Shown here: in pieces, positions 18,255-63,460 of the stretch
How positions within the stretch are numbered: position 1 is the first letter of the stretch
Layout: each line of letters starts with the position of its first letter
Virus record (IMG/VR): IMGVR_UViG_3300020166_000010
Reading direction: 5' to 3' (one strand)
Source of the DNA: a virus
Length of the DNA stretch: 64,000 nucleotides
The notes under the pieces: generated by a model
The model's database searches: none
What the model was told of the DNA's origin: nothing
What the model saw: the letters and a program-made list of their open reading frames with translations, nothing else
Position numbers and translations under genes: made by a program

Positions 18255-18342
18255 ATATAGTAAATATAACACTTTTTATTGGAACAAAAAAACTTTTGAG
18301 CATTTATTTCCACAGAAAGTCCTATTTATAATGATTCCAAAT
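18255..18342 (-). promoter_or_regulatory. early-type promoter with variant palindromic operator
   Basis: TATATTTA box (18261-18268) and ATTTATAATGATTCCAAAT (18324-18342), 55 bp apart. Confidence 0.7.
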
Positions 18343-22214: not shown

Positions 22215-22272
22215 TTATATGTAAATATAAACCTTTTATTTGATATAAAAAAATCCTGGTGAAAAAACTTTC
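22215..22272 (-). promoter_or_regulatory. early-type promoter without the palindrome
   Basis: TTTTTTTATATC...TATATTTA core (box at 22222-22229). Confidence 0.6.
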
Positions 22273-25945: not shown

Positions 25946-26878
25946 TTATTGTTCAATGTCAAAGAAGAACATGTGGAAAAATCTTGCATTATCAATTGCA
26001 TCTCCAAAGTATTCAGTCGCTGCGTGTAATTGTGATGAGTTAAATATTACTAGTCTATTATATACATTTCCAATATCATCAATCTTTTCAAATTGAGTTC
26101 CATCGTAGAAATTCATTTCTTTATTAGTACCTCTAAATGTGTCTACGTATTCGTCTCCCATTCTAGATTCTTGACCTGGGAATGATGAAATTCCTGTAAC
26201 TTTACTTCGATACATTGCGGTTCCTGTCTGTGGAGGAGCATCTGGCGTTAAGTAAACCATTGCAGCGTACATTTGACTATCTACATGATATACTATAGGT
26301 TGATCTGCCGTACAGAATTGAAATACGCCATTAGCATATCCACCATTATTCCAGTTTGTTATTTTTTTACCTAATACGGTTTCAAGTTTTTCTTTAGTTC
26401 CATCAATAATATATCTAGACTGAGATCTCTGTCCTTTGTGGTATTTAGAAGGTAAAAACTCTAAATTGTTCATAGCATATTCCCTGATTAAATCTGGATC
26501 TGCGTAAAAATTATCAACAACAATAACATCTTTATCTATTCTGTTAAACCCGGATGCAGAAGCTGCCCATTTAGCTAAAGAAATAAGCTCAACTGGTTCT
26601 GCGTCGTTTAAGCTAACCCATAATTTTTTATTAATATCAGCATGTAGGATCATTATATTAAATCCTGTTTTTTCTGGAATTACTCCTTTATAAAAAGAAG
26701 AAACATCTGATCTTTTTTCCCATGAAATATTCAAGGATTTTCCATCTAATAAAACATCAGTTACTATAGTATCTTTATTTATTGAACCTACCCATCCTCT
26801 TGCATACCAATATCCATCGGTGCCTTTAGTAATAGAATCAATGTTTAATTTTACATTGTTTAAATTAGTTTCGTGCAT
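25946..26878 (-). CDS. DUF6445-like 2OG-Fe(II) oxygenase with N-terminal beta domain
   Basis: VIVVDNFY.DPD, H.D, YLTPDAP..GT, YNRLVIF..LH..R motifs. Confidence 0.75.
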   Translation of the reverse strand: MHETNLNNVKLNIDSITKGTDGYWYARGWVGSINKDTIVTDVLLDGKSLNISWEKRSDVSSFYKGVIPEKTGFNIMILHADINKKLWVSLNDAEPVELISLAKWAASASGFNRIDKDVIVVDNFYADPDLIREYAMNNLEFLPSKYHKGQRSQSRYIIDGTKEKLETVLGKKITNWNNGGYANGVFQFCTADQPIVYHVDSQMYAAMVYLTPDAPPQTGTAMYRSKVTGISSFPGQESRMGDEYVDTFRGTNKEMNFYDGTQFEKIDDIGNVYNRLVIFNSSQLHAATEYFGDAIDNARFFHMFFFDIEQ

Positions 26879-29470: not shown

Positions 29471-29508
29471 GTTATTTTTATTCTTTTTTTATATAATTAA
29501 CTTATTGA

Positions 29509-32040: not shown

Positions 32041-32077
32041 GTTATTATTTTTATATTTTTATTTGTTTTATATATTG

Positions 32078-34828: not shown

Positions 34829-34876
34829 ATCTTTGTTTTTATTATTTTTTAGTTACTCCTGTTTTATTTATTCTAA

Positions 34877-37800: not shown

Positions 37801-38395
37801 CTTGTTCTCCTTGGAAACCTTGAATACCTTGTTCTCCAGTTTCTCCTTTGAAACCTTGAATACCTTGTTCTCCAGTATCTCCTTTAAAACCTTGATCTCC
37901 TTGAATACCCTGTTCTCCAGTATCTCCTTTGAAACCTTGATCTCCTTTAAGACCAGTTTCTCCTTGAATACCCTGTTCTCCTTGGTCTCCTTTAAGACCT
38001 TGTTCTCCTTGAATACCTTGAATACCCTGTTCTCCTTGATCTCCTTTAAGACCTTGTTCTCCTTGATCTCCTTTAAGACCATCTACTCCTTGTGTTCCTT
38101 GATCTCCTTGGAAACCTTGAATACCTTGTTCTCCTTGAATACCCTGTTCTCCTTGAAGACCTTGATCTCCTTGAATACCTTGTTCTCCAGTATCTCCTTT
38201 AAGACCTTGATCTCCTTGAATACCTTGAATACCTTGTTCTCCTGTATCTCCTTGAAAACCTTGATCTCCTTGAAAACCTTGAACCCCATCAATACCTTGA
38301 TCTCCTTGGAAACCTTGATCTCCTTGCGTACCTTGATATCCGGATCCTTGATCTCCCTGAGGACCTGCGGTAGAAATATATGCTGAATATGCCAT
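34877..38395 (-). CDS. acidic, nearly Pro-free collagen-like protein with internal globular domain
   Basis: GEQ/GDQ/GFK/GDT repeats in two blocks separated by a roughly 150-aa non-collagen domain. Confidence 0.92.
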   Translation of the reverse strand: MAYSAYISTAGPQGDQGSGYQGTQGDQGFQGDQGIDGVQGFQGDQGFQGDTGEQGIQGIQGDQGLKGDTGEQGIQGDQGLQGEQGIQGEQGIQGFQGDQGTQGVDGLKGDQGEQGLKGDQGEQGIQGIQGEQGLKGDQGEQGIQGETGLKGDQGFKGDTGEQGIQGDQGFKGDTGEQGIQGFKGETGEQGIQGFQGEQGVIGVQGTKGDDGIQGIQGFQGDTGEQGIQGIKGDQGFKGDDGIQGIQGDQGFKGDTGEQGIQGEQGIQGEQGVIGVQGTTGDQGFKGDTGEQGIQGETGLKGDTGEQGIQGEQGVIGVQGTKGDDGIQGVQGEQGLKGDTGEQGVQGEQGVIGVQGAKGDDGIQGDTGLKGDTGEQGIQGVQGEQGLKGDTGEQGIQGIKGDQGFKGDTGEQGIQGDQGFKGDTGEQGVQGEQGVIGVQGTTGDQGFKGDTGEQGIQGIKGDQGFKGDTGEQGVQGEQGIQGVQGTKGDDGIQGVQGEQGLKGDQGFKGDTGEQGIQGIKGDQGLKGDTGEQGIQGIKGDQGFKGDDGIQGLKGDDGIQGIKGDQGFKGDTGEQGIQGIKGDQGFKGDTGEQGIKGDQGFQGESGTLGAKGDQGFQGFQGFQGDQGFQGIDGLKGDQGFKGDQGETGAKGDQGFQGFQGDQGEKGTKGDQGEKGDQGFQGTIGNAGGLSVIYDGVTFSDSKYTNVNQLSHTEANAFIYSGSQEWWFSDIANGLEDINHMNSLFANMVNDGYDKIYVKISKNGDSTKYHLYEASNASIILGSGGRGDLRLDMERVGGSNNGYAGGTSSNEHMTAAAVNQPDKNGQLLVSFTPMKIGAQGDQGFQGFQGAQGDQGFQGAKGDQGFQGIDGLKGDQGEQGIKGDQGETGAKGDQGFQGFKGDTGAKGDQGFKGDTGAKGDQGFQGVQGTDGTLGAKGDQGFKGDTGEQGIQGVQGTKGDDGIQGVQGTKGDDGIQGVQGEQGLKGDQGFKGDTGEQGIQGIKGDQGFKGDTGAQGATGAKGDQGFKGDDGIQGIKGDQGFKGDTGAKGDTGAQGATGAKGDQGFKGDDGIQGIKGDQGFKGDTGAQGATGAKGDQGFQGFKGDTGAKGDQGFKGDTGAQGATGAKGDQGFQGETGAFDGDSITIANDKAIYFNDANGNPTARIERDGNGDITFSFD
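36360..38365. repeat. highly homogenised 9n-nt coding tandem repeats
   Basis: Recurrent ccttgaataccttgttctccagtatctcctttgaaaccttgatct units; a second block lies at about 35005-35895. Confidence 0.85.
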
Positions 38396-38429: not shown

Positions 38430-39194
38430 TTAGTCTAATGAGTTTTTCTCGTATACTATATCGAAAAGATCTCCTCCTCCGATTTCATATCCTGCGAAAT
38501 TTGAATTCCAAAACAGTTCATCACCAGCTTCTAAATCTGCAACAGATTTGGCAGTGATACCTGCATTGTTAGAGAAATATACATCTCCTGTTTTTTCTCC
38601 ATAAGTTTCTGTAACAGCTACACCGTTAATATAAACCTGTACAGTTGAATCTGCGAAAGGAGTATAGTCTAATGTAATACCTGTTGCTGATTCATCTCCG
38701 TTAGATGAAAGAGGTGTTAAATCAGCTTGCGTGTATTCAGAACCTTGTGCTACCTGAGTTGGACCTAAACTTGGTCTCCATGGTAATACTTGTGCTTTTG
38801 TTGCTGAAATTGCTTGTAAAACTGGATTGCTGTATGCATATGCTGGTTGTGATGCATTTACAAATTCTGCGATAGAACCTGAATCAGAATCATCAACTAC
38901 ATAAAAAGTACCTGGAGTTAAATTCCAAGTTGATACTTCAATGTTACCAATTTGTACTGCAATGAAATTAGAATCATCAGTAGCTTCTTCAACTACTAAT
39001 CTTCCCAATTTGTCGGCAGTTTTAGAATCTGCTAAAACCCAAGAACCGTTAAAGAATGCAATAACATTCCCTGCTGCAAAACCATGAGCAGCCTGTTCGT
39101 AACTTGATTTTAAAGATCCTGATGCCAGTTGAGAATCGATAGACTCTAACTTTGTCTGTAAGCCTTCGATTTGCTTAATTTTTAATTGTGACAT
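38430..39194 (-). CDS. virion fibre-anchoring/decoration protein
   Basis: N-terminal KIKQI motif; C-terminal domain paralogous to that of 43912-45144. Confidence 0.65.
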   Translation of the reverse strand: MSQLKIKQIEGLQTKLESIDSQLASGSLKSSYEQAAHGFAAGNVIAFFNGSWVLADSKTADKLGRLVVEEATDDSNFIAVQIGNIEVSTWNLTPGTFYVVDDSDSGSIAEFVNASQPAYAYSNPVLQAISATKAQVLPWRPSLGPTQVAQGSEYTQADLTPLSSNGDESATGITLDYTPFADSTVQVYINGVAVTETYGEKTGDVYFSNNAGITAKSVADLEAGDELFWNSNFAGYEIGGGDLFDIVYEKNSLD

Positions 39195-39908: not shown

Positions 39909-40687
39909 ACGTCCCACTTGTCCGTTAGATGGCATCTTACATAAACCGGTGCTTGATATGCAATACCATTAGGATATTCTGATTGTAGTCTCGTATAAAA
40001 GTCTACATCTTCTGATGTGTCTTTAGATATAACATCCCTCCATTTTGTTGATAGATTAGTTTTGTGCATAAATAACCAAGGTGCCATTATCTGTCTGTTT
40101 GGTTTTACTTGAACTGGCTTCCATGCATCTGATAAACCTTCTATCTGAATTGCAGGCGTTTCGGAAGGATCTACTATAGCATTTCCATTAGCTAGCTCAG
40201 TTGAAACGGACTCATGGTCAAACCATGAAGTATTTATCCACCAATCTTTTTCTGGGTTTGCGTTAAAATATAAAAGAGATGTCATTGTCGCGTTTGGCAT
40301 TAAAAAATCATCTGAATCCATATACATTACAACGTGACCTGTTGCTGCAGCAGCGCCTAATCTTCTACCGAATCCTCTATAATATCTTCCTTTATCTTCT
40401 ATTTCCTCGTACATTTGAGGAGTATCTGTTCTATCGAAATATATTAGTTTTATATTTGGCGTGTTCTTGTGTGATCTATTATATAGTTGATGCGTTTTAT
40501 TACATCCATCTGCAACTATAATAAGTTCGCAATTTTTATATGTTTGGTTTTGAAAACTTTCGACTGCCCTGTGAAATTTACCGATAGGATCCTTTCTTGA
40601 ATTTTCGTAGTTTTCTAGGTTTACTTGCATCACTATAGATATTTTTATCTTGTTTAGTGATTCGAATATTTCTTTAAAGTTGCTCAT
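39905..40687 (-). CDS. GT2-family glycosyltransferase
   Basis: S..NQTY..ELIIVADG, YMDSDD and ED motifs. Confidence 0.85.
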   Translation of the reverse strand: MSNFKEIFESLNKIKISIVMQVNLENYENSRKDPIGKFHRAVESFQNQTYKNCELIIVADGCNKTHQLYNRSHKNTPNIKLIYFDRTDTPQMYEEIEDKGRYYRGFGRRLGAAAATGHVVMYMDSDDFLMPNATMTSLLYFNANPEKDWWINTSWFDHESVSTELANGNAIVDPSETPAIQIEGLSDAWKPVQVKPNRQIMAPWLFMHKTNLSTKWRDVISKDTSEDVDFYTRLQSEYPNGIAYQAPVYVRCHLTDKWDV

Positions 40688-41883
40688 TATTTATATAGGT
40701 TTGTTTTCCAATTGTATTCATGAGATAATTCATGTGTTCCTGGTTTAAATAAATTATCTATTAACTTTTTATATGTATCTACGACATCTGCGTTGGTTGA
40801 CAAATAACGGTCTAATACTTTTTTACTGTTTTTATTATATTGATCTAAATTTTTGTCATGCTCTTCTAGCGCTAATTTTAGCTGTTCTGCGCCTTGTGAT
40901 ATATTAAATCCTTCGTAATAATAGCCTGCATCTTTTATCATGTCTGCGTTGTGCACTATAGGGTACCCGAAATAAAGTGCGTCTAAGTATGCATAATTTA
41001 ATGGGTTTTCCCATTGGTGTGATAAGACTATATCTGTTTCACTTGCTAAGAACGTAGATACTGGGTACCTTCCAACATACTTTATTTTATTATCTGGAGA
41101 ATTAACTATATCGAAATTCTTGATCATCGCTAAATAGTATTTATTCTTTAGTAATTTTTTACCAGATCCTATGTATATTTGTTTAAATGAATTTTTACCA
41201 GATTCTCTAAAAACTCTTTCAGCGATCATGATTGTCATTAATGAATATTTAACGACATTTATATTTGGTTCCATTACAGATAGCTTTTTATCTTTAGCAT
41301 CCTTTGGAGTATATCCCGGAATCAATTTGCCGGCACGTTTTAGTAATTTATTAAATTCGTCAAGCGGCTCAGGGTCCCATATGAAAGGAACTGTTTTTAT
41401 CTGAGAATCCTCTTGTCTGTATATTGTTTTAAAGTATTCTATGTTTTGATATTCCTGTTGAGGTATTACCCAGGTTTCGTCGTGACCTCCGTCCCATGAA
41501 GGAACTGTTGAATCTGTAACCGTGTTAAACATTACTCTTTCCATATCGACTACGTAACTATTCCCACATTGGTATTTTACTACTTTTAAATTTGGATTTT
41601 TGCTTTTCATTAAAGATATCCTACTTGTAGGCAAAGAAGCACCTACCATAAACAATAAGTCTATCTCATTTTCCATCTCTGTAAATTTTGCGATTTTATA
41701 TTTATTATAATCCCAGTTTACTTTAGTTAAATCAGAAACATTCTTAGCTGCGTCTAAAATATAAACGTCAAGTCCTTCTATTTGGTTTAACATTTTAGAT
41801 AGGTTCAATGCATTTAATTTAATGCCGTTGATCCACATGCTTTCATATTCCTTTGTTAGAGATATTATAATTCCTACTTTCAT
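40687..41883 (-). CDS. DUF2827-family protein (probable GT-B glycosyltransferase)
   Basis: W.NGI..N, EPN.NVVK and SHQWENPLNY.YLDALY.GYP.VHN motifs. Confidence 0.75.
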   Translation of the reverse strand: MKVGIIISLTKEYESMWINGIKLNALNLSKMLNQIEGLDVYILDAAKNVSDLTKVNWDYNKYKIAKFTEMENEIDLLFMVGASLPTSRISLMKSKNPNLKVVKYQCGNSYVVDMERVMFNTVTDSTVPSWDGGHDETWVIPQQEYQNIEYFKTIYRQEDSQIKTVPFIWDPEPLDEFNKLLKRAGKLIPGYTPKDAKDKKLSVMEPNINVVKYSLMTIMIAERVFRESGKNSFKQIYIGSGKKLLKNKYYLAMIKNFDIVNSPDNKIKYVGRYPVSTFLASETDIVLSHQWENPLNYAYLDALYFGYPIVHNADMIKDAGYYYEGFNISQGAEQLKLALEEHDKNLDQYNKNSKKVLDRYLSTNADVVDTYKKLIDNLFKPGTHELSHEYNWKTNLYK

Positions 41884-52505: not shown

Positions 52506-52964
52506 TTATAGGGCCTCTACCTCAACTGGCTGGTTCATAACAAAAGCTTTACTTGCCCAGGTTTTACTATTAACTGCCTTATACTGGTCACTATTATATA
52601 GGTTCGTGTTATACCATAATCCGTTAATAGTTCCAACTTCTAAGCCAGCCATTATAGCTTCATCCATTAGGAGGATCTTATTTCCTTTTTTCGCGAACAC
52701 TGTAAAGTAATTATCAGATCCGAATGGCTTATACTCTACTGTATGTAAGGCTCCTTTCTTATATGCGTTTAATACTATTGAAGGATTATCATATAATCTC
52801 TGATCGTCAAAATCTCTAGCATCGTTACAGGTCATATAACCAGCTCTACACTTTGTTATAAAACGGAATTTACCCGGTTGGGCTTCGTAGTAGTCGTTCT
52901 TAATAATGTTGATAGCCTGGATTCCAGTAACGTTGATAATGTCTTTGTTTTTTAATTCGTGCAT
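52506..52964 (-). CDS. hypothetical early protein
   Basis: ORF behind the leftward arm of a divergent early promoter. Confidence 0.75.
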   Translation of the reverse strand: MHELKNKDIINVTGIQAINIIKNDYYEAQPGKFRFITKCRAGYMTCNDARDFDDQRLYDNPSIVLNAYKKGALHTVEYKPFGSDNYFTVFAKKGNKILLMDEAIMAGLEVGTINGLWYNTNLYNSDQYKAVNSKTWASKAFVMNQPVEVEAL

Positions 52965-52994: not shown

Positions 52995-53140
52995 TATAGT
53001 AAATATAACACTTATATTTGATATAAAAAAACTTTTGTGCATTTATTTTTAGTTGAGGTCCTATTTATAATGATTATAAATTAGGAAAGTTTTCACCCTA
53101 GATTTTTTTATATGAAACTAATTGCTTATATTTACTATAT
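52995..53140. promoter_or_regulatory. divergent early promoters sharing one palindromic operator
   Basis: Operator 53063-53081; leftward box 53000-53007 (55 bp away) and rightward box 53127-53134 (45 bp away). This is the strand-switch point. Confidence 0.75.
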
Positions 53141-53161
53141 AATAATTAAAACAACTACTAC

Positions 53162-53515
53162 ATGAATATCAAAATCACCGCAGACGAAGAAAGAGTTATC
53201 AAATATGCACTCGCAGACTATACTAATAACTTAGTTGGTAAGGGAATTCTATATAATACCGCTGTTGGTATCTTAAATAAGATTAACGATGCTGGTATTG
53301 TGAAGGCAGCGAGAACACCTAAGGTGCTGGTTCAGAAGCAATATATGTTCTCATTCGAGAATGGCGGATGGAACACAGTGTGGGCTAAAACACTACCTGG
53401 TGCTAAGCGTCAAGCCTTATTAGAGTATAAGGATTCTGACTTAAATGTTCGATTAGATAGTGTTCACTTAGCTACTAAGAAAGGATTAGATTCGGCAATG
53501 TCCTTATTCTACTAG
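53162..53515 (+). CDS. hypothetical early protein
   Basis: ORF behind an early promoter. Confidence 0.75.
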   Translation: MNIKITADEERVIKYALADYTNNLVGKGILYNTAVGILNKINDAGIVKAARTPKVLVQKQYMFSFENGGWNTVWAKTLPGAKRQALLEYKDSDLNVRLDSVHLATKKGLDSAMSLFY

Positions 53516-53524
53516 GGAACCCTT

Positions 53525-53600
53525 ATTTATAATCATTATAAATTAAGAAAGTTTTCACCCTAGATTTTTTTATATCAATAATTAGTGTTATATTTAACTA
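53525..53600 (+). promoter_or_regulatory. early promoter with palindromic operator
   Basis: Operator 53525-53543; TATATTTA at 53589-53596. Confidence 0.75.
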
Positions 53601-53620
53601 TAATTAAAAACGTAATCGTT

Positions 53621-53833
53621 ATGACAAATTTCAAAAACTTATCAATTTACATCTTAGTGATTTTAGCTGGTGTAGCTATTGCTGCCTTTATTATCCCAGC
53701 TGGTATCAAACTATTTTTTAGTGGTTTACTATGGATGATGAATAATCCTGCAACAGGGTTGGTAATCTCTATTACATTCTTAATCGGATGTTTTGTTGGT
53801 AATTTTGAAACAAAGTCTAATAAATCAGTATAA
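53621..53833 (+). CDS. small membrane protein
   Basis: Two hydrophobic segments; start reassigned to MTNFKN. Confidence 0.65.
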   Translation: MTNFKNLSIYILVILAGVAIAAFIIPAGIKLFFSGLLWMMNNPATGLVISITFLIGCFVGNFETKSNKSV

Positions 53834-53853
53834 TAATAAATCAAACGAACATT

Positions 53854-54990
53854 ATGAGCATTCAAACTTTATCACAAACCGCGGTAGCAACAAGTAAACA
53901 AGAGAGCATCAACGCTCAATCTTTACGCCGCACCCTTCCTTTCCGAGACATTACAATGATCGACGAGACAACCATCGAGTATAAAGGAACTCGTATCCCA
54001 ATTACCAAGCAAGCTTTTAAATCCTTACTATCTCTAGTAGGTATGAGCCAGTCGTTCGCAGACAAATTCTCTAAGCTGTTTAACAAAGAGACTAAAGCGC
54101 AATTCATTAATACTATGAAAAACGCAATGGCATCTAACGCAGGTAAACTTAGCAACGTTACATTGGTTCTAAATCCAATTTCGAAAGCTGTGATCTTATT
54201 TACTAAAGAAGACAAGCTGCAAATCTCAAACGATCAAATGATCCAAGTTGCAGAGAACATGATCTCAGATAGTTCAATGGGAGTATCTAGATGGACTACG
54301 GATCCAACAACAGGTATTATCACAATCGACGCTCATAACCCTAAGGCTGAGTTTGAGATCTTAGGATTAAGTGATGAGGTCTTTACTGGAGGAGTTACAT
54401 TCCGTAATAGTCCACTAAGAGGATTTGAAGTTATGCCATACGTAAATCGCCAATGGTGTACTAATGGTCTAACAACAGCTATGGCACAAGAAGCATACCA
54501 ACTACATTCTTTAGATAATAAGAGTATGGAAAGCTTTTTCGAAAACATGCAAGGTTTAAGACGTAATAACTACGCTCCTGAAGGATTTGCTGATCGAGTT
54601 CGCCAAGCTAACAACACACCTGCTTCGCTACATGAAATGTCTTTTGCACATAACTTAATTTCTAAGCATGCTGGTGAAAGAGCAGAACAATGGGTACCTC
54701 TACAAGAGAACCTCAACGAATATAATAAAGCCGGATTTGATAAATTAACTAACGATCAAATGAAGATGGCTAAAACTAACCAATCGCTTTGGTCAGTAAT
54801 TAATGGAGTTACACACTTTAGTAGTCATGGTAAAGGTATCATCGACACTAACATGCAACCTCATAATGAAGCTGATATCCAAACACGTATTGGAAACCTA
54901 TTAGGCAAAAAGAGTTTTGATCACGAAAACACTATGCCAAACCCTTTTAGTAAGGAACAGCTTCAACAGACTGGAGCTCTTCTGAACTAA
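53854..54990 (+). CDS. DUF932-like protein
   Basis: G..F.NS..R.WC.NG motif and a C-terminal SLW..INGVT helix typical of DUF932/DUF945 phage-plasmid proteins. Confidence 0.6.
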   Translation: MSIQTLSQTAVATSKQESINAQSLRRTLPFRDITMIDETTIEYKGTRIPITKQAFKSLLSLVGMSQSFADKFSKLFNKETKAQFINTMKNAMASNAGKLSNVTLVLNPISKAVILFTKEDKLQISNDQMIQVAENMISDSSMGVSRWTTDPTTGIITIDAHNPKAEFEILGLSDEVFTGGVTFRNSPLRGFEVMPYVNRQWCTNGLTTAMAQEAYQLHSLDNKSMESFFENMQGLRRNNYAPEGFADRVRQANNTPASLHEMSFAHNLISKHAGERAEQWVPLQENLNEYNKAGFDKLTNDQMKMAKTNQSLWSVINGVTHFSSHGKGIIDTNMQPHNEADIQTRIGNLLGKKSFDHENTMPNPFSKEQLQQTGALLN

Positions 54991-55018
54991 TGTTTAGTTT
55001 GATTTTAATTATTATTAC

Positions 55019-55049
55019 AAAAGGCAGGCGTTGTTTCCTGCCTTTTTTT
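55019..55049 (+). terminator. intrinsic terminator
   Basis: AAAAGGCAGG-N8-CCTGCCTTTTTTT. Confidence 0.8.
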
Positions 55050-55073
55050 ATACACCTCGGTCAGGGGGCCCTT

Positions 55074-55150
55074 ATTTATAATGATTATAAATTACAAAAG
55101 TTTTCACCCTAGATTTTTTTATATCAATAAAAAGTGTTATATTTAATTAT
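55074..55150 (+). promoter_or_regulatory. early promoter with palindromic operator
   Basis: Operator 55074-55092; TATATTTA at 55138-55145. Confidence 0.75.
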
Positions 55151-55169
55151 AATTAAAAAACAAACAAAC

Positions 55170-55454
55170 ATGACTTATTCAAAAATCGTTTCCGCTATCA
55201 ACAATGCTAACCTTTCAGTAGAAGAACTTTCTAAGCTGAATTCTTTCGTGGTTGATACTATTAAATTAAAACGCAAAATGAACGGCGCTGTTATTAAGCA
55301 ATCTCTATCTAGAGGTTCAATGGTAATGGTTGATCACCCTGCACACAAGAACTCTACGTTCGAGGTATTAGAAGTTCGTAGAACTAAAGCAACTATCAAA
55401 GATAGTCAAGGTCGCAGAATGAATGCACCTCTATCTATGTTGATCCCAATGTAA
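55170..55454 (+). CDS. small protein with C-terminal SH3-like beta barrel (putative)
   Basis: ORF with start reassigned to MTYSKI. Confidence 0.7.
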   Translation: MTYSKIVSAINNANLSVEELSKLNSFVVDTIKLKRKMNGAVIKQSLSRGSMVMVDHPAHKNSTFEVLEVRRTKATIKDSQGRRMNAPLSMLIPM

Positions 55455-55474
55455 ATTGTCAACAACCCGATTGC

Positions 55475-55548
55475 GGACTTATAGCTCAGCTGGTTAGAGC
55501 AGCGCACTCATAATGCGAAGGTCACAGGTTCGAACCCTGTTAGGTCCA
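55475..55548 (+). tRNA. tRNA with CAU anticodon, probably tRNA-Ile2 (elongator Met not excluded)
   Basis: GGACTTA/TAGGTCC acceptor stem, AGCTCAG..GG..AGAGC D-arm, CTCATAA anticodon loop and GTTCGAA T-loop. Confidence 0.9.
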
Positions 55549-55553
55549 CCCAG

Positions 55554-55625
55554 AATTGTTAATAACTTTTGAAAATAAGTTCACTAAAGTTTTCATATCC
55601 CACTAAAAAGGTTTATATTTACATA
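55554..55625 (+). promoter_or_regulatory. early-type promoter with alternative upstream element TTGTTAATAACTTTT
   Basis: TATATTTA at 55614-55621; same architecture at 62437-62505. Confidence 0.55.
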
Positions 55626-55645
55626 TAACATTAAAACACCACGTA

Positions 55646-56731
55646 ATGAATCACTACACTATTAAGAAAACCAAAAACACATATACCCTAACTGAGGTAC
55701 AATCAGGAACAACTCTAAACATTGGATCCACACATCCTAAATTTAACTATGTCGCTAAAGAAGATTCTAAAGGATCTCGTATTATTAATATCAATGGCGA
55801 CAAGTTCACCTCATCTAAAGATTATAGAGGTCACTATAAGAAGTCTACCCAAGCTCAAAAGCCAGCTAAGCCTCTTAATATTACCCTAACCAAGTTAGAT
55901 GATTTAAATATTAATGCCAACTTATTCGTACCTATAGAGACCAATACAGTCTTTGACAAATTCGCATCTACTGCAGGTGGTATTATGCCAGGTACAAACA
56001 TCATGGCGGCCGGAGCCCCAGGTGTTGGTAAAACTACGGTCCTATTAGATCTATTAAGTACTGCACATAAGAGTGGTAAGAAGGTCCTATTCATCTCAGC
56101 TGAAATGTCTCAGATAGATATGGCCCGCTACTTACAACGCTTTCCTCACTGGGGTCAGTTGCCGATCTTATTCCTAGCAGACTATGTGGATGAATGTCCA
56201 AAGACTGTAATCGAACAAGTCTTAAATGGAGGTTGGGATTTGGTCCTAACTGATAGCTACACTGAAGTTAACGACACCGTAAAAGAAGCTTGTAACCTAA
56301 CCCGTGGTAAAGTTGAGAAATGGTTCCTAGACCTAATGATCTCAAATAACAAAGGTGTTAACAAGCCCGGAATCTACACAACCTTTATTACCATCTTGCA
56401 ATTATCTAAAGGAGGTCAATTCGTCGGATCTAACAAACTAAAACACATGACCACGAGCATGATGAGCTTGGACTGGGAAGGTGGAGAAAACGCAGGTCGT
56501 AGATACATGGAATTCTCTAAAAACCGAGTAGGTGCAGTAAACAAAAAACTTTACTTTTCTTTAGAAGGCGGAGTAAGCTTTGACGAAGCCCGATACGCTA
56601 GGGATCTATTTAACGACGAGTTGGTATCTACAGAACGCAAGCAATTAGCGACGGAAGCAGATGCCTTCGACAAGTTATTCGGATTCAGTGAAGTAGATGC
56701 CGAAGACTTAGAAGCTCATATCGAAATATAA
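55646..56731 (+). CDS. RadA/Sms-like RecA-fold ATPase (no Zn finger or Lon domain)
   Basis: GGIMPG..GAPGVGKTT, VLFISAE, DS, L.HM and KNRVG (cf. RadA KNRFG). Confidence 0.75.
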   Translation: MNHYTIKKTKNTYTLTEVQSGTTLNIGSTHPKFNYVAKEDSKGSRIININGDKFTSSKDYRGHYKKSTQAQKPAKPLNITLTKLDDLNINANLFVPIETNTVFDKFASTAGGIMPGTNIMAAGAPGVGKTTVLLDLLSTAHKSGKKVLFISAEMSQIDMARYLQRFPHWGQLPILFLADYVDECPKTVIEQVLNGGWDLVLTDSYTEVNDTVKEACNLTRGKVEKWFLDLMISNNKGVNKPGIYTTFITILQLSKGGQFVGSNKLKHMTTSMMSLDWEGGENAGRRYMEFSKNRVGAVNKKLYFSLEGGVSFDEARYARDLFNDELVSTERKQLATEADAFDKLFGFSEVDAEDLEAHIEI

Positions 56732-56757
56732 GGGTCCTATTAGGATTCCTAAGCCTT

Positions 56758-56786
56758 CCTCCCGGTTATGTGGTGTTTCCGGGAGG
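56758..56786. other. 8-bp GC hairpin whose 13-nt loop is antisense to the upstream gene's start region
   Basis: CCTCCCGG-TTATGTGGTGTTT-CCGGGAGG. Confidence 0.65.
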
Positions 56787-57347
56787 TTTGGTGTATTTGG
56801 AGCATTGGGGCACCTGTATATCCTCGGACCGGTCATGGTAAAAAACGCTCCTCCGGTGTGAGCCAATTGGCGTTGGGGTTTAAGGTTCCTACAGGGACTT
56901 TACTTGGATGCTATATTTAGGGATTACTTGGGAATACCCTTGGATGGCTAGGAGAATCCTTACAAGCCTATCTAGCTTTCTTATATCTCTATTAGGTTAT
57001 TATAGGAGGATGGAGTTTTAAGATCTTATATACCTATACCTATATCTCTATTACTAGGATCCGTATTACTTGGATAGTTGTTTGCCTTATCTTGCTTGTC
57101 TCTTCTTAGATCTCTTATATCTTTCTTTCTTTTCTTATTCTTCTTGTTGGGATTCTTATTCTTATCTCTTCTTTGTTATCTATTATGATTGATTCTTTTG
57201 GTCACGTGCGAGGGTCCATTTTACAAGAATCTTTGCACGCTCGGGTGGTTTGTAGTGTGGTCGGTCAAAAGGATTGATATTCTACAGGTTTTTAGGATCG
57301 GGTTCTTAAGGAGTGAGCCTATATATACCTCTTCTTTTTGTCACCTT

Positions 57348-57425
57348 ATTTGGAATGATTATAAATTACAAAAGTTTTCACCCTAGATTTTTTTATATCA
57401 ATAATTAGTGTTATATTTACTATAT
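57348..57425 (+). promoter_or_regulatory. early promoter with variant palindromic operator
   Basis: ATTTGGAATGATTATAAAT at 57348-57366; TATATTTA at 57412-57419. Confidence 0.72.
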
Positions 57426-57447
57426 AATAATTAAAACAACTACACTC

Positions 57448-57825
57448 ATGCCTTACATTACTAAAGATCAAGTTTCTCAAAAAAGAAAAGAATTAAAAGC
57501 TGCCTTACCTGACTATAAGCTATCTATTACTACTGAACATTATTCTGGTATTAAGGTTGCTATCATGGCAGGTCCTACTGATTTTGGAACTGAATACTCT
57601 CAACTAAATCCTCATCATGATTATCGAGGAGAAACTTGGAACCGCTATACTGAAGAATACGATTCTAACCCTCCTATCCAAGATGTTCTAGATATTATTA
57701 TGCCTATTCTAAATGAAGGCAAAGGAGAGGGTCATGAAGATGGAGATTACGGTATGATTCCTGATTATTATACTTGGGTTCATATTGGTAAATGGGATAA
57801 AGCTTATGAAATTAAAACTAAATAA
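57448..57825 (+). CDS. early protein, LPD29-like (tentative)
   Basis: RKELKAALP.YKLSI..YS.I.V..GP pattern. Confidence 0.6.
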   Translation: MPYITKDQVSQKRKELKAALPDYKLSITTEHYSGIKVAIMAGPTDFGTEYSQLNPHHDYRGETWNRYTEEYDSNPPIQDVLDIIMPILNEGKGEGHEDGDYGMIPDYYTWVHIGKWDKAYEIKTK

Positions 57826-57826
57826 T

Positions 57827-58054
57827 ATGACAAACGAAAACACAGGATATCTTCCACAAATCGCATTCAATCTAGTAGATGAAAATAGAACTACACTTGA
57901 GTATTTTATTAATAAACATATTGAAGAGTTTGGAAAGTTTTCATCCTCTGATCTAATGTGGATCTTTGATGCTTCTGCTAGTATTAAAAGAACCCGAGCT
58001 CAGGAAACTAATGAATGGAATGACAGCCTTAATATTGAATCTTATACACTTTAA
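57827..58054 (+). CDS. hypothetical protein
   Basis: ORF with start reassigned to MTNENT. Confidence 0.6.
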   Translation: MTNENTGYLPQIAFNLVDENRTTLEYFINKHIEEFGKFSSSDLMWIFDASASIKRTRAQETNEWNDSLNIESYTL

Positions 58055-58058
58055 AATT

Positions 58059-58346
58059 ATGAAAACAAAAGAATTAATTTGGAAATTAGAATCTACTATC
58101 TATTTATTAGATGAGATTGTTTTAAACTATCGATCTGAAGATTGGAATATGTTAAAAGCTCGCATTGCTGATCATATTGGAGTCACTAAAGGCTCGGTTA
58201 ATATGGCTATAGGAAATCTAAAGTGGATTTTATCTGATGGCTCTGAAGGCCTCTCTGCTTATACTGTTCGTCAGGAGGAAGCGGTTAGACTTACTTTAGA
58301 GAAATATGAATTAAGTAAGCAAAAACTTTTAATGATACTATCTTAA
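58059..58346 (+). CDS. hypothetical protein, possible HTH
   Basis: RIADHIGVTKGSVNMAI helix-turn-helix-like segment. Confidence 0.6.
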   Translation: MKTKELIWKLESTIYLLDEIVLNYRSEDWNMLKARIADHIGVTKGSVNMAIGNLKWILSDGSEGLSAYTVRQEEAVRLTLEKYELSKQKLLMILS

Positions 58347-58355
58347 TTATTAAAC

Positions 58356-59414
58356 ATGAAAATTAAATTTATTATAATCGCATTTTTTGTAGCAGCTACA
58401 TGTAATGCACAGAAAACCCTTGTATCTGACATCACAGATGTAGATCTAAGTAATACAGAGCAATCAGGATATGTTAATTGGGATTTCACCAATAATACAA
58501 CCGGATATGCCTGGACCTGGGGAGCACCTGGAATGCTAGTCTATGGAGATGCGCCTGAAATGTGCTTGGACATAGAAGCTGAAATTAAAAACATATCTCA
58601 CGTATGGGGAGCTGGTATCTCTATTGGAGTAGATGAATCCTCAACAAACAGTGAACTAAAGTATAATGGCATTAATAACTATTATTTATCAGTAGAAGAC
58701 GATGTTGTTGGATTATTTAGAGGAACCAATAACACACAAGAAGATTTCATGGCTGATACACTAGCATACGTCGGTGTGACAATTGATCAAACTGAATGGT
58801 ATAAATTAAGATTAAAAATAGAAGCAGATACGATATATGGATATGTTAACGATGTTCTATACATTAACCATAAGGTAGATAGTATACAAAAGAACGGTAA
58901 GTTTGCTATAGTATCTTCTAATAGTGAAAATACATATAAGAATATAAAAGCAAGATATCACAAAGATCCATACTATATTAGTAGTGATACTATTGTAGAA
59001 TTTGTAAGTGATGTTAATCACCCAGAATGGAATAACTTACCTGTCACTCGATTAGATAGTGTTGAAACTGTAGTAGAAGCCGATGGATTAGATCATTTCA
59101 TAAGCCATTATATACAATATAAAGAATCTGAATCAATTAATATAGGAGATGATGATTGTGATTGCATTTGCCCAGCAGTAACTACCCTATCGATATATCC
59201 AAATCCAGTATCTGAATATATTAACGTAAGTATACAACAGCCTGAAGGAACACTCAAGGTTTATAGCATGCATGGATCATCTGTTAAATCCTATGATTTA
59301 AAATATGGAATTAATAGAATAGATATGACAAGATATCCAATAGGACATTATTTATTCAAAGTAGAATACGAAGGAAGAAAGGCATTAATAGAAAAGATAA
59401 TAGTAACTCATTAA
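58356..59414 (+). CDS. secreted protein with signal peptide, beta-sandwich domain and T9SS type-A C-terminal sorting domain
   Basis: MKIKFIIIAFFVAATCNA/Q signal peptide; C-terminal IYPNP..I.V..VYS..G..G.YLFKV..KII. Confidence 0.85.
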   Translation: MKIKFIIIAFFVAATCNAQKTLVSDITDVDLSNTEQSGYVNWDFTNNTTGYAWTWGAPGMLVYGDAPEMCLDIEAEIKNISHVWGAGISIGVDESSTNSELKYNGINNYYLSVEDDVVGLFRGTNNTQEDFMADTLAYVGVTIDQTEWYKLRLKIEADTIYGYVNDVLYINHKVDSIQKNGKFAIVSSNSENTYKNIKARYHKDPYYISSDTIVEFVSDVNHPEWNNLPVTRLDSVETVVEADGLDHFISHYIQYKESESINIGDDDCDCICPAVTTLSIYPNPVSEYINVSIQQPEGTLKVYSMHGSSVKSYDLKYGINRIDMTRYPIGHYLFKVEYEGRKALIEKIIVTH

Positions 59415-59420
59415 ATATTT

Positions 59421-60014
59421 ATGATAATATACGTTGCACCCCCTCGAGGGATTCAAGAAAAACAAGATTGCTTTAATTGGCTAACACAATATGGACATGA
59501 AGTTGTTTGGTTAGATTTAAGACGTAAAGTCAAAGGCCCTCTACTCTTATGTGGAGGCGCTGATATCGGTAAAGATCAAGAACGCGATGATCGAGAAAAG
59601 ATTTGGATTAAACAAACCCTTGCTGATGGATATCCTATTATTGGTCTTTGTCGAGGCATGCAAGTTTTAAACTCTTATTTTGGAGGTGTTGTTGAAGATC
59701 TTAGCGATCGTATAGTAGAAGATCATAAAGCTGCTGATTTTTCAGAAAATATTGACCACAGTGGAAAACCTTCACAATTTCACACAGTAGAAGATTTACA
59801 TGGTAAATTAATAAACGTTAATTCTCGACACCATCAACATTGTTCAGTAATAGCAGACAATTTCAAGGCCACTCATCTTTCATATCCTTTATATTCTGTA
59901 ATAGAAGGTTTTGAAGATATTGATCAAAAGATTTGGGCAGTGCAGTGGCATCCTGAAAAAATGGAATCCGAAGATAATGAATACCCTTTAAATAAACTAA
60001 TTAATTTAAAATAA
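59421..60014 (+). CDS. class I glutamine amidotransferase / peptidase C26 (PuuD-like)
   Basis: GGADI, GLCRGMQ, VNSRHHQ and VQWHPE motifs. Confidence 0.88.
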   Translation: MIIYVAPPRGIQEKQDCFNWLTQYGHEVVWLDLRRKVKGPLLLCGGADIGKDQERDDREKIWIKQTLADGYPIIGLCRGMQVLNSYFGGVVEDLSDRIVEDHKAADFSENIDHSGKPSQFHTVEDLHGKLINVNSRHHQHCSVIADNFKATHLSYPLYSVIEGFEDIDQKIWAVQWHPEKMESEDNEYPLNKLINLK

Positions 60015-60268
60015 TGGACCAAAACATGATACTAAGATCTGGCAAATATCAAGGATATACTGTCAGAGAAGCTTATCGAAAAGACCCTTCATATATTAGA
60101 TGGGTTATTGAAAATGTACCGGCAATGCTAAAGAGCCACGGCCCTAGTAAAAAAGCTAAAGTAGTAGAAGCTCGTAAACCATTTGAATATAAGCAACCAC
60201 CTGATGTTGAAAAGACTATAGAAAATGGTTGGATTCCACCTGGCAGTGTAGAAGATGCATTTTTTTGA
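60014..60268 (+). CDS. small ExoX-C-terminal/DUF3820-like protein
   Basis: GKYQG..DPSYIRW motif. Confidence 0.6.
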   Translation: MDQNMILRSGKYQGYTVREAYRKDPSYIRWVIENVPAMLKSHGPSKKAKVVEARKPFEYKQPPDVEKTIENGWIPPGSVEDAFF

Positions 60269-60284
60269 AAATAAATGAATTTTT

Positions 60285-60345
60285 GTGAAAATAAATGCAT
60301 AAAAGTTTTTTTATCCCAATAAAAAGTGTTATATTTAATTATAAT
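60285..60345 (+). promoter_or_regulatory. early-type promoter without the palindrome
   Basis: AAAATAAATGCATAAAAGTTTTTTTAT...GTGTTATATTTA. Confidence 0.65.
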
Positions 60346-60361
60346 TAAAAAAGCAATAGAC

Positions 60362-60694
60362 ATGAACAAATTAGAAACATTAGGATTAGTTGAAATAACT
60401 TCAAAAACTCAAAAGAAAAACGGTACAAGATGCTTTTACGATCCAATCGCTGATTGCGATTATCTAAGTTATGAAAGTGGATATGTTCGTAGAGCTTATA
60501 CTAAAGCTACTCACTACTCTTCTAGACTACACCGAACAATTTATCAATTAAACCTCAAGGGTCGTGGTTACTACAAAAGCCAATACAGCGATAAAATCTA
60601 CGAAACAACCGTTCGTTTAATGATTCCAAGTGAACAAGCTAGACTTGATCGACTTGCTAAGTGTGTTGTTATTTATAGAAAAAATAAACTTTAA
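60362..60694 (+). CDS. hypothetical early protein
   Basis: ORF with start reassigned to MNKLET. Confidence 0.7.
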   Translation: MNKLETLGLVEITSKTQKKNGTRCFYDPIADCDYLSYESGYVRRAYTKATHYSSRLHRTIYQLNLKGRGYYKSQYSDKIYETTVRLMIPSEQARLDRLAKCVVIYRKNKL

Positions 60695-60789
60695 TATGAT
60701 ACTTGAATGGATTATAGTAGGCTCTATTCTAATAGCATGGAATGCCTTTCTAATTATTAAAATGCGTAAAGAAGATAAATAGATTAACA

Positions 60790-62319
60790 ATGAATTTTAT
60801 AGAAGAGATCATCGAGAGTGGAGACACATCTAATTTAATGTTTAGATTTCCTCCAGAACCTAATGGACACCTACACTTAGGACATGCCAAAGCAATTTGT
60901 CTTAATTTTGATTTAGCACACAAATATAAAACAGGGTGCAATCTTAGATTTGACGATACTAATCCATTGGCAGAGTCTACTGTATTTGCAGATTCTATCA
61001 TGGAAGATGTTGCTTGGCTTGGATATAGACCTACCGAAGTCGAAGAAACTAGTAACTATTTTAAATTTATACAAAGATGTGCTAGTCAATTGATTATACA
61101 AGGTGATGCATACATGGATGATTCAACATCCGAAGAGATTGCTGAATTAAAAGGAGATCTTGAAAATCCAGGATCCGATTCGCCATATCGCAATAGAACG
61201 ATTGCAGAAAATTTAGAAGAATTTAGAAAGCTATGTGAAGGCAGTATCAAAACTGTTTTGAGAGCTAAAATCGACATGGCAGATCCTAATCTATTAATGA
61301 GAGATCCTGTTATCTATAGATCTATTGATGCCCCTCACCATAACACAGGCACGGACTTTAAAGCGTATCCTATGTATGATTTTGCACATCCTATTTCAGA
61401 TTGGAAAGAAGACATCACACATTCATTATGTACTTTAGAATTTGAAGCGCATCGACCTTTTTATAATTGGACTCTTGATAAATTATTCGATACTAGTGTC
61501 TTTGGTCCTAATCCTCGTCAAATTGAATTCTCAAGATTAAATGTACAAGGGTTTACTTTAAGTAAAAGATATTTAAAAGAACTTGTAGAAGAAGGAGTTG
61601 TTGATGGATGGGACGATCCTCGCATGCCAACATTGAAAGGATTAAAGCGTCGTGGATTTACTCCAGATGCTATTAGAAACTTTTGTGAAAAGGTTGGAAT
61701 CTCTAAAAGAGAATCTCAAATTGAGAGATCTTTATTAGATGGATGTTTACGTGATGATTTAAATAAGATTTCAGAACGCAGAATGGTAGTCAAAGATCCA
61801 ATTAAACTAACAATTGTTGGTGATTTTAAACCAGGATTTGCTGCTCTTGAAAATAATCCAGAATCATCTATAATATCAGCTCGTAAAGTAAATTACTCTG
61901 AACAATTCTGGATTGAACGAGAAGACTTTAGAGTAAGTGCCAATAAGAAATATAAAAGACTAAAACTCGGAGATAATGTTAGACTAAAGGGTGTTTGTAT
62001 TGTAAAGGCGGTTGATTACACTGAAATAGATGGTATAATCACTGAAGTGTTTTGTGAACATTATCCTGATAGTTTTTCAGGAATGAAAACAGATGTAAAA
62101 GCGAAAGGAACAATACATTGGGTAAATAGAGATGAAGCAGTTGAAATTAAATTAAACCACTTTGATGGATTAGATAAAGGAACAATTTCAGCGTTTGGAG
62201 AACCTTTATTGAGGCTAGAATACGAAAAACCAGTACAATTCGTTCGACATGGCTACTATATGAAAGATGGGGACAGTTGGAACCATTCAGTATCTTTAAA
62301 AAGTAGTTATAATGGGTGA
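60790..62319 (+). CDS. glnS: glutaminyl-tRNA synthetase
   Basis: RFPPEPNG.LHLGHAK, CNLRFDDTNP, YP.YDFAH, THSLCTLEF, LSKR, GWDDPR and KGTIHWV motifs. Confidence 0.93.
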   Translation: MNFIEEIIESGDTSNLMFRFPPEPNGHLHLGHAKAICLNFDLAHKYKTGCNLRFDDTNPLAESTVFADSIMEDVAWLGYRPTEVEETSNYFKFIQRCASQLIIQGDAYMDDSTSEEIAELKGDLENPGSDSPYRNRTIAENLEEFRKLCEGSIKTVLRAKIDMADPNLLMRDPVIYRSIDAPHHNTGTDFKAYPMYDFAHPISDWKEDITHSLCTLEFEAHRPFYNWTLDKLFDTSVFGPNPRQIEFSRLNVQGFTLSKRYLKELVEEGVVDGWDDPRMPTLKGLKRRGFTPDAIRNFCEKVGISKRESQIERSLLDGCLRDDLNKISERRMVVKDPIKLTIVGDFKPGFAALENNPESSIISARKVNYSEQFWIEREDFRVSANKKYKRLKLGDNVRLKGVCIVKAVDYTEIDGIITEVFCEHYPDSFSGMKTDVKAKGTIHWVNRDEAVEIKLNHFDGLDKGTISAFGEPLLRLEYEKPVQFVRHGYYMKDGDSWNHSVSLKSSYNG

Positions 62320-62529
62320 TCCTTTAGATATATAAAGAAAACAGACAAAAAGCCATGATAATATTTTGCATTGTATTCTTAGCCGTTAGCTTCGTAATTG
62401 GAGTTAACATGCTATTAGAATCTAGAAATCGTAAGTAATTGTTAATAACTTTTTTAAAATAAGTGAGTCAGGATTTTCCTGGTTCACTTTTTTTGGTTAT
62501 ATTTATACTATAATTAAAAGATAATTAAC

Positions 62530-62961
62530 ATGGCAATACCTAAAATTTACAAGTACGGAATCGAAATCACAAAGCCCTGGTCTTCTGAGATGTACGATTT
62601 TAACGAAAACATCAAAGAATACTATCAAGATCAAATCAAAGATCTGATAAACTCCCTCAAAACAACAGAAGATTGTAATTTTATCGCTGGAATAGTAAAT
62701 CCATACAGATATGGAATAGGAACTTCCGATGATATTGAGTACATGAAGTCAGATATGATTAAGAACATTGAGAATGCTGAAAGCCACTGGATGAAAGAGG
62801 TTATTGAAGAACTTTTGATCTTACAGAGAATTTACCCTATGATTTGTGAAGCTACTCCAGAAATGCCAGCAATTTCTCTATATGATTTAGGAATTCCAAT
62901 GAACATTATTGGGTTTGAAACTCGCGATGAGATCTTACTTTTGCGCGAAAGATATTCTTAA
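62530..62961 (+). CDS. hypothetical protein
   Basis: ORF behind an early-type promoter (62437-62505). Confidence 0.7.
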   Translation: MAIPKIYKYGIEITKPWSSEMYDFNENIKEYYQDQIKDLINSLKTTEDCNFIAGIVNPYRYGIGTSDDIEYMKSDMIKNIENAESHWMKEVIEELLILQRIYPMICEATPEMPAISLYDLGIPMNIIGFETRDEILLLRERYS

Positions 62962-62974
62962 AGCATTAATTCTT

Positions 62975-63060
62975 ATTTATAATCATTATAAATAGGACCT
63001 CAACCCAAAATAAATGCACAAAAGTTTTTTTATATCAATAAAAAGTGTTATATTTAACTA
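62975..63060 (+). promoter_or_regulatory. early promoter with palindromic operator
   Basis: Operator 62975-62993; TATATTTA at 63049-63056 (55 bp away). Confidence 0.75.
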
Positions 63061-63079: not shown

Positions 63080-63460
63080 ATGTCAATCAACACAGTTTTA
63101 GTTCACACACAGTACGAAGAGAATTACGGGTTTCATGAAGGTAACTTCCATTGGAAGCCTAAAGGCAGTCACACATTTCAGATCGAGATGGATGCAGATC
63201 ATATGTTTTATTCTGACCCTGCTAAAGTTTTCAGCAAGATGTTAGAGAAGCACAATTCAGATCTTGAAAGATTCACGTATGTCGATCATGATATTCAGTT
63301 TCATTCACCTACTATTCTTGGTAATCAAGATGATTATATTAAGGCTAATCAATCAATAACGGATCAAGAAGATATTCAAGATTTTGAAGAAGTTAATCAC
63401 GTTATTGCTGGTGTCGATTTCTCAGATAGTATTAATCAATTAAATAACCTTAAACTATAA
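63080..63460 (+). CDS. hypothetical early protein
   Basis: TQYEENYG..WKPKG motif seen in large-phage early proteins. Confidence 0.7.
   Translation: MSINTVLVHTQYEENYGFHEGNFHWKPKGSHTFQIEMDADHMFYSDPAKVFSKMLEKHNSDLERFTYVDHDIQFHSPTILGNQDDYIKANQSITDQEDIQDFEEVNHVIAGVDFSDSINQLNNLKL

Follow-up and report, generated by a model that had tools for sequence, protein, structure and literature searches.

A Fur-box-like palindrome at fixed distances upstream of a phage promoter class probably ties phage expression to the iron status of a Bacteroidota host

We analyzed a 64,000-nucleotide stretch of viral DNA, IMG/VR record IMGVR_UViG_3300020166_000010 (here called the window), in which a 19-bp palindrome, ATTTATAAT-N-ATTATAAAT (full form ATTTATAATNATTATAAAT; two 9-bp halves around one base, or 9-1-9), recurs at fixed distances upstream of a repeated promoter. 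The comparisons of sequence and position described below indicate that expression of this phage is probably tied to host iron status. We consider the chances about evenly balanced that, more specifically, host Fur binds the phage palindromes and the promoters belong to an iron-replete, activated class. Under this reading, Fur, the iron-sensing dimeric repressor and activator of Flavobacteriales, would bind the 19-bp palindrome, which is set upstream of 8 of the 11 conserved host-sigma-type promoters in the window. Iron-loaded Fur on one face of the helix would then assist RNA polymerase, and the phage units would be transcribed most strongly when the cell has iron. We infer Fur binding, activation, and early timing from these patterns, and the assignment of the box type to Fur comes from the Riemerella literature.

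A motif search of the window returned the same sites that a first-pass annotation of the sequence had proposed: five exact palindromes (at 1027, 53063, 53525, 55074, and 62975) and two GG/CC variants with two mismatches, each with one ATTTGGAAT half (at 18324 and 57348). The five exact ATTTATAATNATTATAAAT matches compare with none in 100 shuffles, and all seven palindromes with no more than two mismatches precede a cassette promoter, as the repeated promoters are called here. Wherever a phage site is asymmetric, in the window or in related contigs, the variant half is the promoter-distal one. Matches with three mismatches at 26886 and 50331 were dismissed as noise, there being no cassette downstream of either. 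The seven sites are these, each with the gap to its downstream -7-like box.

1027-1045: exact palindrome with a gap of 45 bp to the minus-strand box (974-981), directly after the terminator hairpin of the upstream gene
18324-18342: palindrome variant, reading ATTTGGAATCATTATAAAT in the direction of its promoter, with a gap of 55 bp to the minus-strand box (18261-18268); variant half promoter-distal
53063-53081: exact palindrome serving two divergent promoters, with gaps of 55 bp to the minus-strand box (53000-53007) and 45 bp to the plus-strand box (53127-53134)
53525-53543: exact palindrome with a gap of 45 bp to the box at 53589-53596
55074-55092: exact palindrome with a gap of 45 bp to the box at 55138-55145; a terminator-like hairpin (55026-55043) stands before the palindrome
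57348-57366: palindrome variant ATTTGGAATGATTATAAAT with a gap of 45 bp to the box at 57412-57419; variant half promoter-distal
62975-62993: exact palindrome with a gap of 55 bp to the box at 63049-63056

Measuring the gap from the end of the palindrome to the start of the -7-like box TATATTTA, from the coordinates and with a script, we obtained 45 bp for the promoters at 1004 (minus strand) and at 53104, 53566, 55115, and 57389 (plus strand) and 55 bp for those at 18291 and 53030 (minus strand) and 63026 (plus strand), which reproduces exactly the five and three cases counted earlier. The single site at 53063 does lie between two divergent promoters, 55 bp from the leftward one and 45 bp from the rightward one. 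Three classes of linker fill these gaps: a TAAGAAAGTTTTCACCCTAGA-type of 45 bp, a TACAAAATAAATGTATAAAAG-type of 45 bp at the 1004 promoter, and a 55-bp class in which the same AAAATAAATGCA element is preceded by an extra 10 bp (AGGACCTCAAC-type). Two unrelated linkers therefore share the 45-bp gap and the third class differs by a 10-bp insertion, so the spacing reflects, at least in part, more than one duplicated unit.

As a stand-in for the whole genome we used G001, a related IMG/VR contig of 175 kb (estimated to be 66% complete) that is 92 to 94% identical to the window and syntenic with it. G001 carries nine palindromes with up to two mismatches, all nine of them before a cassette, with gaps of 44, 44, 45, 45, 45, and 55 (five times) bp, and in its orthologue of the 55115 promoter the linker sequence has been replaced and the 45-bp gap kept. 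Over five phage contigs and 27 promoters, many of them orthologous, only gaps of 44, 45, and 55 bp occur. The 44/45- and 55-bp gaps are a whole helical turn apart, with the transcription start inferred; if the start lies a few bases past TATATTTA, the centre of the site would be about 65 or 75 bp before it.

Such constancy could also arise if the palindrome bound nothing specific and were a passenger of a duplicated cassette, as in T4-type modules, or an AT-rich structural or recombination element. The cassettes are indeed repeats of about 90 bp, often with terminator hairpins before them, and the spacing could come with the unit by inheritance. However, the palindrome is preserved next to differing or replaced linkers, three cassettes without it mark it as a separable module, and the same sequence is strongly enriched and positionally constrained in host genomes. 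We therefore regard this explanation as highly improbable.

The enrichment was measured in an even sample of 301 Flavobacteriaceae genomes, with the reversed motif as the control. The family ATTTA[T/G]AAT-N-ATT[A/C]TAAAT (ATTTAKAATNATTMTAAAT) is present exactly in 88 of the 301 genomes (about 110 sites) and its reversed control in one, and the box family is about 100-fold enriched. With up to one mismatch, five genomes gave 40 sites and the control none, and the half-sites ATTTGGAAT and ATCTATAAT of the phages are among them. A search for the exact phage 19-mer, with one genome per species, yielded at least 120 matches, many of them in Chryseobacterium, others elsewhere in Flavobacteriales, and some in Firmicutes. 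Among the matches listed, the Firmicutes copies lie over promoters of Dps/ferritin, Fur-family, and VIT1 iron transporter genes, contexts that were confined to Firmicutes among the loci sampled.

At 14 of 30 sampled host loci, the box accompanies a multihaem cytochrome c gene that heads a respiratory operon and is divergent from a SPOR-domain gene. Other neighbours are hemA, nqrA, and genes for pyruvate:ferredoxin oxidoreductase, cysteine desulfurase, NiFe hydrogenase, an iron-sulfur (Fe-S) assembly protein, and TonB-dependent receptors, as well as sdhC and an operon of NapD with an Fe4S4-molybdopterin oxidoreductase. No catalase or peroxidase family was found among the host neighbours sampled, and Fur autoregulation was rejected because five Flavobacteriales had no box upstream of their fur genes.

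The predicted Fur box of Riemerella anatipestifer is ATTTAGAATTATTCTAAAT (PMC5609570), which agrees with the form that the first-pass annotation had given. In that species, Mn-dependent binding of Fur to promoter fragments was seen in electrophoretic mobility shift assays, and deletion of the box led to derepression (PMC7976709, PMC10986502, PMC11967795). Against this box, ATTTAGAAT-N-ATTCTAAAT, the five exact phage sites score 16 of 18 half-site positions, as do the GG variants at 18324 and 57348. Both are 19-bp inverted repeats of the 9-1-9 kind, Flavobacteriaceae genomes often contain hybrid sites in which one half is of the phage type, and one phage relative carries ATTTAGAATCATTATAAAT. 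The two differ at position 6 of each half, which is G in Riemerella and T in the phage. They also differ in placement, in that the characterised Riemerella sites are near start codons and repressing, whereas the phage sites are well upstream of the core promoter.

The palindrome also contains, in all five exact sites, a 15-bp core identical to the Bacillus subtilis per box, TTATAATNATTATAA (PMC3953959), as had been proposed. However, B. subtilis belongs to another phylum, and the host context here is iron use and uptake rather than catalase or peroxidase genes. We know of no PerR that has been characterised in Flavobacteriales. Of the earlier suggestion that phage transcription is wired to host iron or peroxide status through a Fur-family protein, the iron half is strengthened by a box about 100-fold enriched in Flavobacteriaceae and found beside iron genes; the peroxide half is conjectural, the experiments in Flavobacteriales pointing to Fur and not to PerR.

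Host boxes fall into two positional classes, one overlapping the promoter and one upstream of it. In the overlapping class, the box at TonB receptor genes begins 2 bp past the -7 element and reaches the ATG, or sits within the spacer, and at the cysteine desulfurase gene it ends 8 to 9 bp before the ATG; the exact phage 19-mer is also found at such a repressor-type position at TonB receptor genes. In the upstream class, for which we measured the gap from the box to a canonical TAnnTTTG, it is 45 to 48 bp at the cytochrome c operon, 46 bp at sdhC, 44 bp at another cytochrome gene, 56 to 57 bp at nqrA and the nap-like (napD/molybdopterin) operon, and 33 to 35 bp at the divergent SPOR gene. In 14 Chryseobacterium species, the class I (Fe-S) fumarase gene has the exact phage palindrome 45 to 47 bp ahead of its -7 box, and the gene for the iron-free class II enzyme often lies close by in divergent orientation. 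From its placement, this single palindrome looks like a one-site iron switch between two fumarases.

The phage gaps of 44/45 and 55 bp therefore coincide with the host upstream class (44 to 48 and 56 to 57 bp). The host gaps of 33 to 35, 44 to 48, and 56 to 57 bp likewise step by whole helical turns. Phage and host upstream-class promoters share the box, the gap classes, divergent use of one site, and the promoter-proximal half, which is ATTATAAAT in the host cytochrome c sites as it is in the phage. They differ in that the host promoters, whose sites are predicted only, have a canonical TAnnTTTG where the phage has TATATTTA. The same distances recur at host genes for iron-rich enzymes, and so the phage promoters would most likely behave as an iron-replete class; because host genes of the same geometry are expected to be active in plentiful iron, position favours activation. 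The activator-type position that the first-pass annotation inferred from phasing is thus independently supported by host iron-rich enzyme promoters with the box 44 to 48 or 56 to 57 bp upstream.

We then considered which protein would bind the palindrome. The first-pass annotation had called for a search for a phage-encoded Fur or helix-turn-helix (HTH) regulator, and none was found: the Pfam FUR model in the relatives and tblastn with Winogradskyella Fur gave no phage Fur, in the window or in its relatives, and no HTH or sigma family was detected among 56 small and mid-size open reading frames (ORFs) of the window with Pfam and PHROGs. Winogradskyella, with an exact palindrome at nqrA, has one Fur-family gene (type unassigned). 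Since no phage Fur or HTH protein was found and Winogradskyella has a single Fur-family gene, host Fur is the simplest candidate binder. Other Flavobacteriales have one strong Fur-family match and one to three weaker ones, and Chryseobacterium and Elizabethkingia have three to four paralogues.

A phage-encoded protein of unrecognised fold might instead bind the palindrome and switch the class off or boost it, the likeness to a Fur box being due to convergence or competition. Most of the small genes behind the cassette promoters are without a family assignment, and the phage favours the symmetric T/T form, a rarity in Flavobacteriaceae. Furthermore, palindrome-less cassettes carry a second upstream element, ATTGTTAATAACTTT, with the small palindrome GTTA-A-TAAC, about 44 bp upstream of the -7-like box (55555-55569 and 62438-62452 in the window; 21100, 123900, 128689, and 130853 in G001). 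As a borrowed host site ATTGTTAATAACTTT was rejected, because it is unenriched in 151 Flavobacteriaceae genomes (17 versus about 22); it may therefore be the site of a phage-encoded regulator, and regulators of the phage's own are thus possible. However, the palindrome is identical to the host motif in sequence, in spacing classes, and in half-site orientation, which is hard to account for if no host factor is involved, and among the window ORFs scanned there was no HTH, Fur, or sigma family, nor any Fur in the relatives. We consider a phage-encoded binder improbable.

Alternatively, another host regulator, for example an iron- or respiration-responsive activator, could recognise the upstream-class palindromes and be the protein that the phage exploits. 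The upstream-class host genes form a respiration and tricarboxylic acid cycle set (cytochrome c, succinate dehydrogenase [SDH], fumarase, nqr, and the nap-like operon), and in transcriptome sequencing (RNA-seq) of Riemerella, low iron lowers the expression of SDH, fumarase, aconitase, and cytochrome genes in the wild type and the fur mutant alike. The three to four Fur-family paralogues of Chryseobacterium and Elizabethkingia offer other candidates, and a MerR-like iron regulator is known from marine Bacteroidetes (PMC9478572). Set against this are the identical 19-mer at repressor positions of TonB receptor genes, the experimental support for this palindrome as a Fur box type in Riemerella, the one Fur-family gene of Winogradskyella despite the exact palindrome at nqrA, and, for the Bizionia regulator MliR as a binder, the lack of any published motif (PMC9478572). 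This makes a second host regulator a fairly improbable answer.

If host Fur is the binder, its effect need not be positive. The main effect could be negative or indirect, with Fur repressing in replete iron by spreading or looping, or with the phage copies acting as decoys that derepress iron uptake. Fur is classically a repressor, and the outcome depends on the position of the box relative to the polymerase site (PMC11353095). Phased spacing suits looping, the nine sites in 175 kb of G001, itself estimated to be 66% complete, would multiply with replication, and the Riemerella data show no Fur-dependent activation of iron-rich enzymes. But the sites lie outside the core promoter, with no second Fur-like box over the core when examined by eye, the host genes with the same spacing encode iron-consuming enzymes expressed in plentiful iron, and a decoy has no need of a fixed distance or a promoter-proximal orientation. 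We therefore think a mainly negative or decoy role unlikely.

For activation by Fur there are precedents in Helicobacter and Neisseria, where activation is linked to a box that lies upstream of the position of the polymerase (PMC11353095); those cases differ in box sequence and distance and are not from phages. To our knowledge, no fixed helical register has been reported for them. In Riemerella, the iron response of the iron-rich enzyme genes persists in the fur mutant, and the RNA-seq results speak neither for nor against their direct activation by Fur.

A broader version of the activation reading is that Flavobacteriales Fur is a position-coded switch, which represses when its box overlaps the promoter and directly activates when the box lies farther upstream, about 34, 45, or 56 bp from the -7 element, and that a lineage of large phages copied this arrangement onto its early promoters so that infection starts fully only in iron-replete cells. 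We put this forward tentatively, as possible but doubtful. It would cover the one-site fumA/fumC toggle in Chryseobacterium along with repression at iron uptake and Fe-S assembly genes, and the replicated phage sites might drain Fur late in infection and so open host iron uptake.

Several observations weigh against activation of these promoters by host Fur. The pure T/T palindrome is rare in Flavobacteriaceae, where the majority of host sites have ATTTAGAAT in one half or both. In every copy, the final base of the -7-like box is A in place of the consensus G, so that its recognition by unmodified host polymerase is an assumption, and 3 of the 11 cassettes function without a palindrome. In Riemerella, low iron reduces fumarase, SDH, and a cytochrome c oxidoreductase subunit in the wild type and also in the fur mutant, and with iron present the fur mutation leaves fumarase without a significant change. 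Much of the constancy of spacing is inherited, the independent cases amounting to about three phage linker classes and about six host promoters, and helical phasing is equally compatible with loop-mediated repression. The putative early timing is taken from gene content and from the different motif upstream of structural genes.

The promoters themselves share a 31-bp core, TTTTTTATATCAATAAAAAGTGTTATATTTA, in which a T-rich -33 region and a 19-bp spacer are followed, at the end, by the -7-like TATATTTA; about 25 to 35 A-rich bases then lead to the ATG of a short gene. TATATTTA agrees with the Bacteroidota -7 element TAnnTTTG at 7 of 8 positions, the final G being A in 11 of 11 copies, and TTTT stands 19 bp upstream. 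The cassette resembles the Bacteroidota housekeeping-sigma promoter pattern (-33 TTTG, -7 TAnnTTTG). Sigma-70-type -35/-10 matches showed no enrichment, and the TATAAT inside the palindrome was rejected as a -10 element for this reason and for want of a -35 element at 17 bp. Of the 11 cassettes in the window, 8 have a palindrome and 3 (22252 on the minus strand; 55591 and 60307 on the plus strand) do not.

974-1004, minus strand: promoter core; drives the small genes 728-949, 369-716, and 152-376
18261-18291, minus strand: promoter core with 3 mismatches; drives 17997-18233 and downstream genes
53000-53030, minus strand: promoter core; drives 52506-52964
53104-53134, plus strand: diverged promoter core (8 mismatches, TATATTTA retained); drives 53162-53515
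53566-53596, plus strand: promoter core; drives 53621-53833 and the 378-amino-acid gene 53854-54990
55115-55145, plus strand: promoter core; drives 55170-55454 and the tRNA-Met gene (55475-55550)
57389-57419, plus strand: promoter core; drives 57448-57825 and downstream genes to about 60268
63026-63056, plus strand: promoter core; drives 63080-63460
22222-22252, minus strand: cassette promoter without palindrome, of the same family
55591-55621, plus strand: cassette promoter without palindrome, with ATTGTTAATAACTTT at 55555-55569; drives the DnaB/RadA-like ATPase gene 55646-56731
60307-60337, plus strand: cassette promoter without palindrome, with a duplicated GAAAATAAATG upstream; drives 60362-60694 and the glutaminyl-tRNA synthetase gene

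The tRNA-Met (CAT) gene at 55475-55550 is flanked by two of these promoters, the one at 55591 beginning directly 3' of it. A hairpin with a 13-bp stem and a T-run (62461-62489) lies directly upstream of the -7-like box of the promoter of 62530-62961, so that a terminator abuts the core. The glutaminyl-tRNA synthetase gene (60790-62319, 509 amino acids) is 44 to 50% identical to genes of huge uncultured phages and of coliphage D6.

Genes of the structural region are headed by another short motif, ATATATAGA or TAATATATA-like, about 25 to 45 bp before the ATG, and this motif is a candidate for a late-promoter class distinct from the cassettes. A separate motif at structural genes fits the cassettes as a non-late class.

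1102-2370, 8240-9988, 13087-14274, 25946-26878, 38430-39194, and 40687-41883: genes with the ATATATAGA or TAATATATA-like motif

The virion region also helps to place this large, uncultured phage. The nearest cultured relatives of its 582-amino-acid protein are in large phages of Tenacibaculum, Chryseobacterium, Flavobacterium, and Prevotella and in phage PAU; these relatives indicate a Bacteroidota host, which supports the reading of the first-pass annotation. Megablast of the window against GenBank phages gave no match, nor did tblastn with the capsid-like ORF at 13087-14274. There was no excess of the palindrome in the distant cultured phages Tenacibaculum PTm1 and pT24, Flavobacterium MaF61, and Sphingomonas PAU. 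Elsewhere in the window, four very large minus-strand ORFs (26996-38395) have 9-bp periodic repeats (collagen-like Gly-X-Y) and raised G+C. Pfam tallies over 46 window ORFs include PhoH, UvdE, ClpP, RNase HII, DnaJ, dCMP deaminase, thymidylate synthase, and ribosomal protein S21. Two matches among the same 46 ORFs are to 2-oxoglutarate-Fe(II) (2OG-Fe(II)) oxygenase families, and such oxygenases are phage-encoded iron-dependent enzymes.

A distant jumbo relative in culture, Chryseobacterium phage MA9V-1 (OR050627.1), has a similar layout. Its cassettes, at 39055, 56757, 101089, and 207051, end in TAAATTTA-TACTATAATTAAAAC, and imperfect 9-1-9 palindromes of the ATTTGTAAT type stand 56 bp upstream of the box in three of them and 87 bp upstream in one; the three palindrome-like sites read ATTTGTAATGATTATAAAT, ATTTGTATTCATTACAAAT, and ATTTATATCAATTATAAAT. 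Chryseobacterium indologenes MA9 with MA9V-1 could therefore serve as a cultured test system, as a lead suggested by similar sequence layout and not as proof.

Sites for nutrient regulators of the host are known in phages: Pho boxes for PhoB and NtcA sites in marine cyanophages, a Fur site at stx1 in Shiga-toxin prophages, and a DtxR site at tox in corynephage beta. In these, as would be the case here, the site of a global nutrient regulator of the host lies in a phage promoter and expression follows nutrient status. They differ in that they concern single auxiliary or toxin genes and mostly repression or two-component activation, whereas here the site heads most of a promoter class, is phased, and belongs to a large lytic-type phage. 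T4-type early modules, in which many near-identical strong promoters and stem-loops head short early units, resemble the cassettes in their repeated promoters, often beside terminator hairpins. However, those modules are not known to carry a host-regulator operator and are discussed as recombination modules rather than nutrient sensors. The literature library that we searched held no report of Fur boxes in lytic phage promoters. What would be new is thus a whole promoter class with a host-regulator site at fixed helical register, where the known cases are single genes.

Iron is in limiting supply in much of the surface ocean, and organic matter from algae is degraded to a large extent by flavobacteria. 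If the proposed mechanism is true, the main non-late promoters of this phage read the iron sensor of the host, and iron supply would be linked to viral lysis at the level of transcription. Iron availability would then directly gate, through transcription, the infection of marine flavobacteria by phages. On the host side, the two positional classes give a testable model for how one protein could raise iron-rich enzymes and lower iron uptake in Flavobacteriales.

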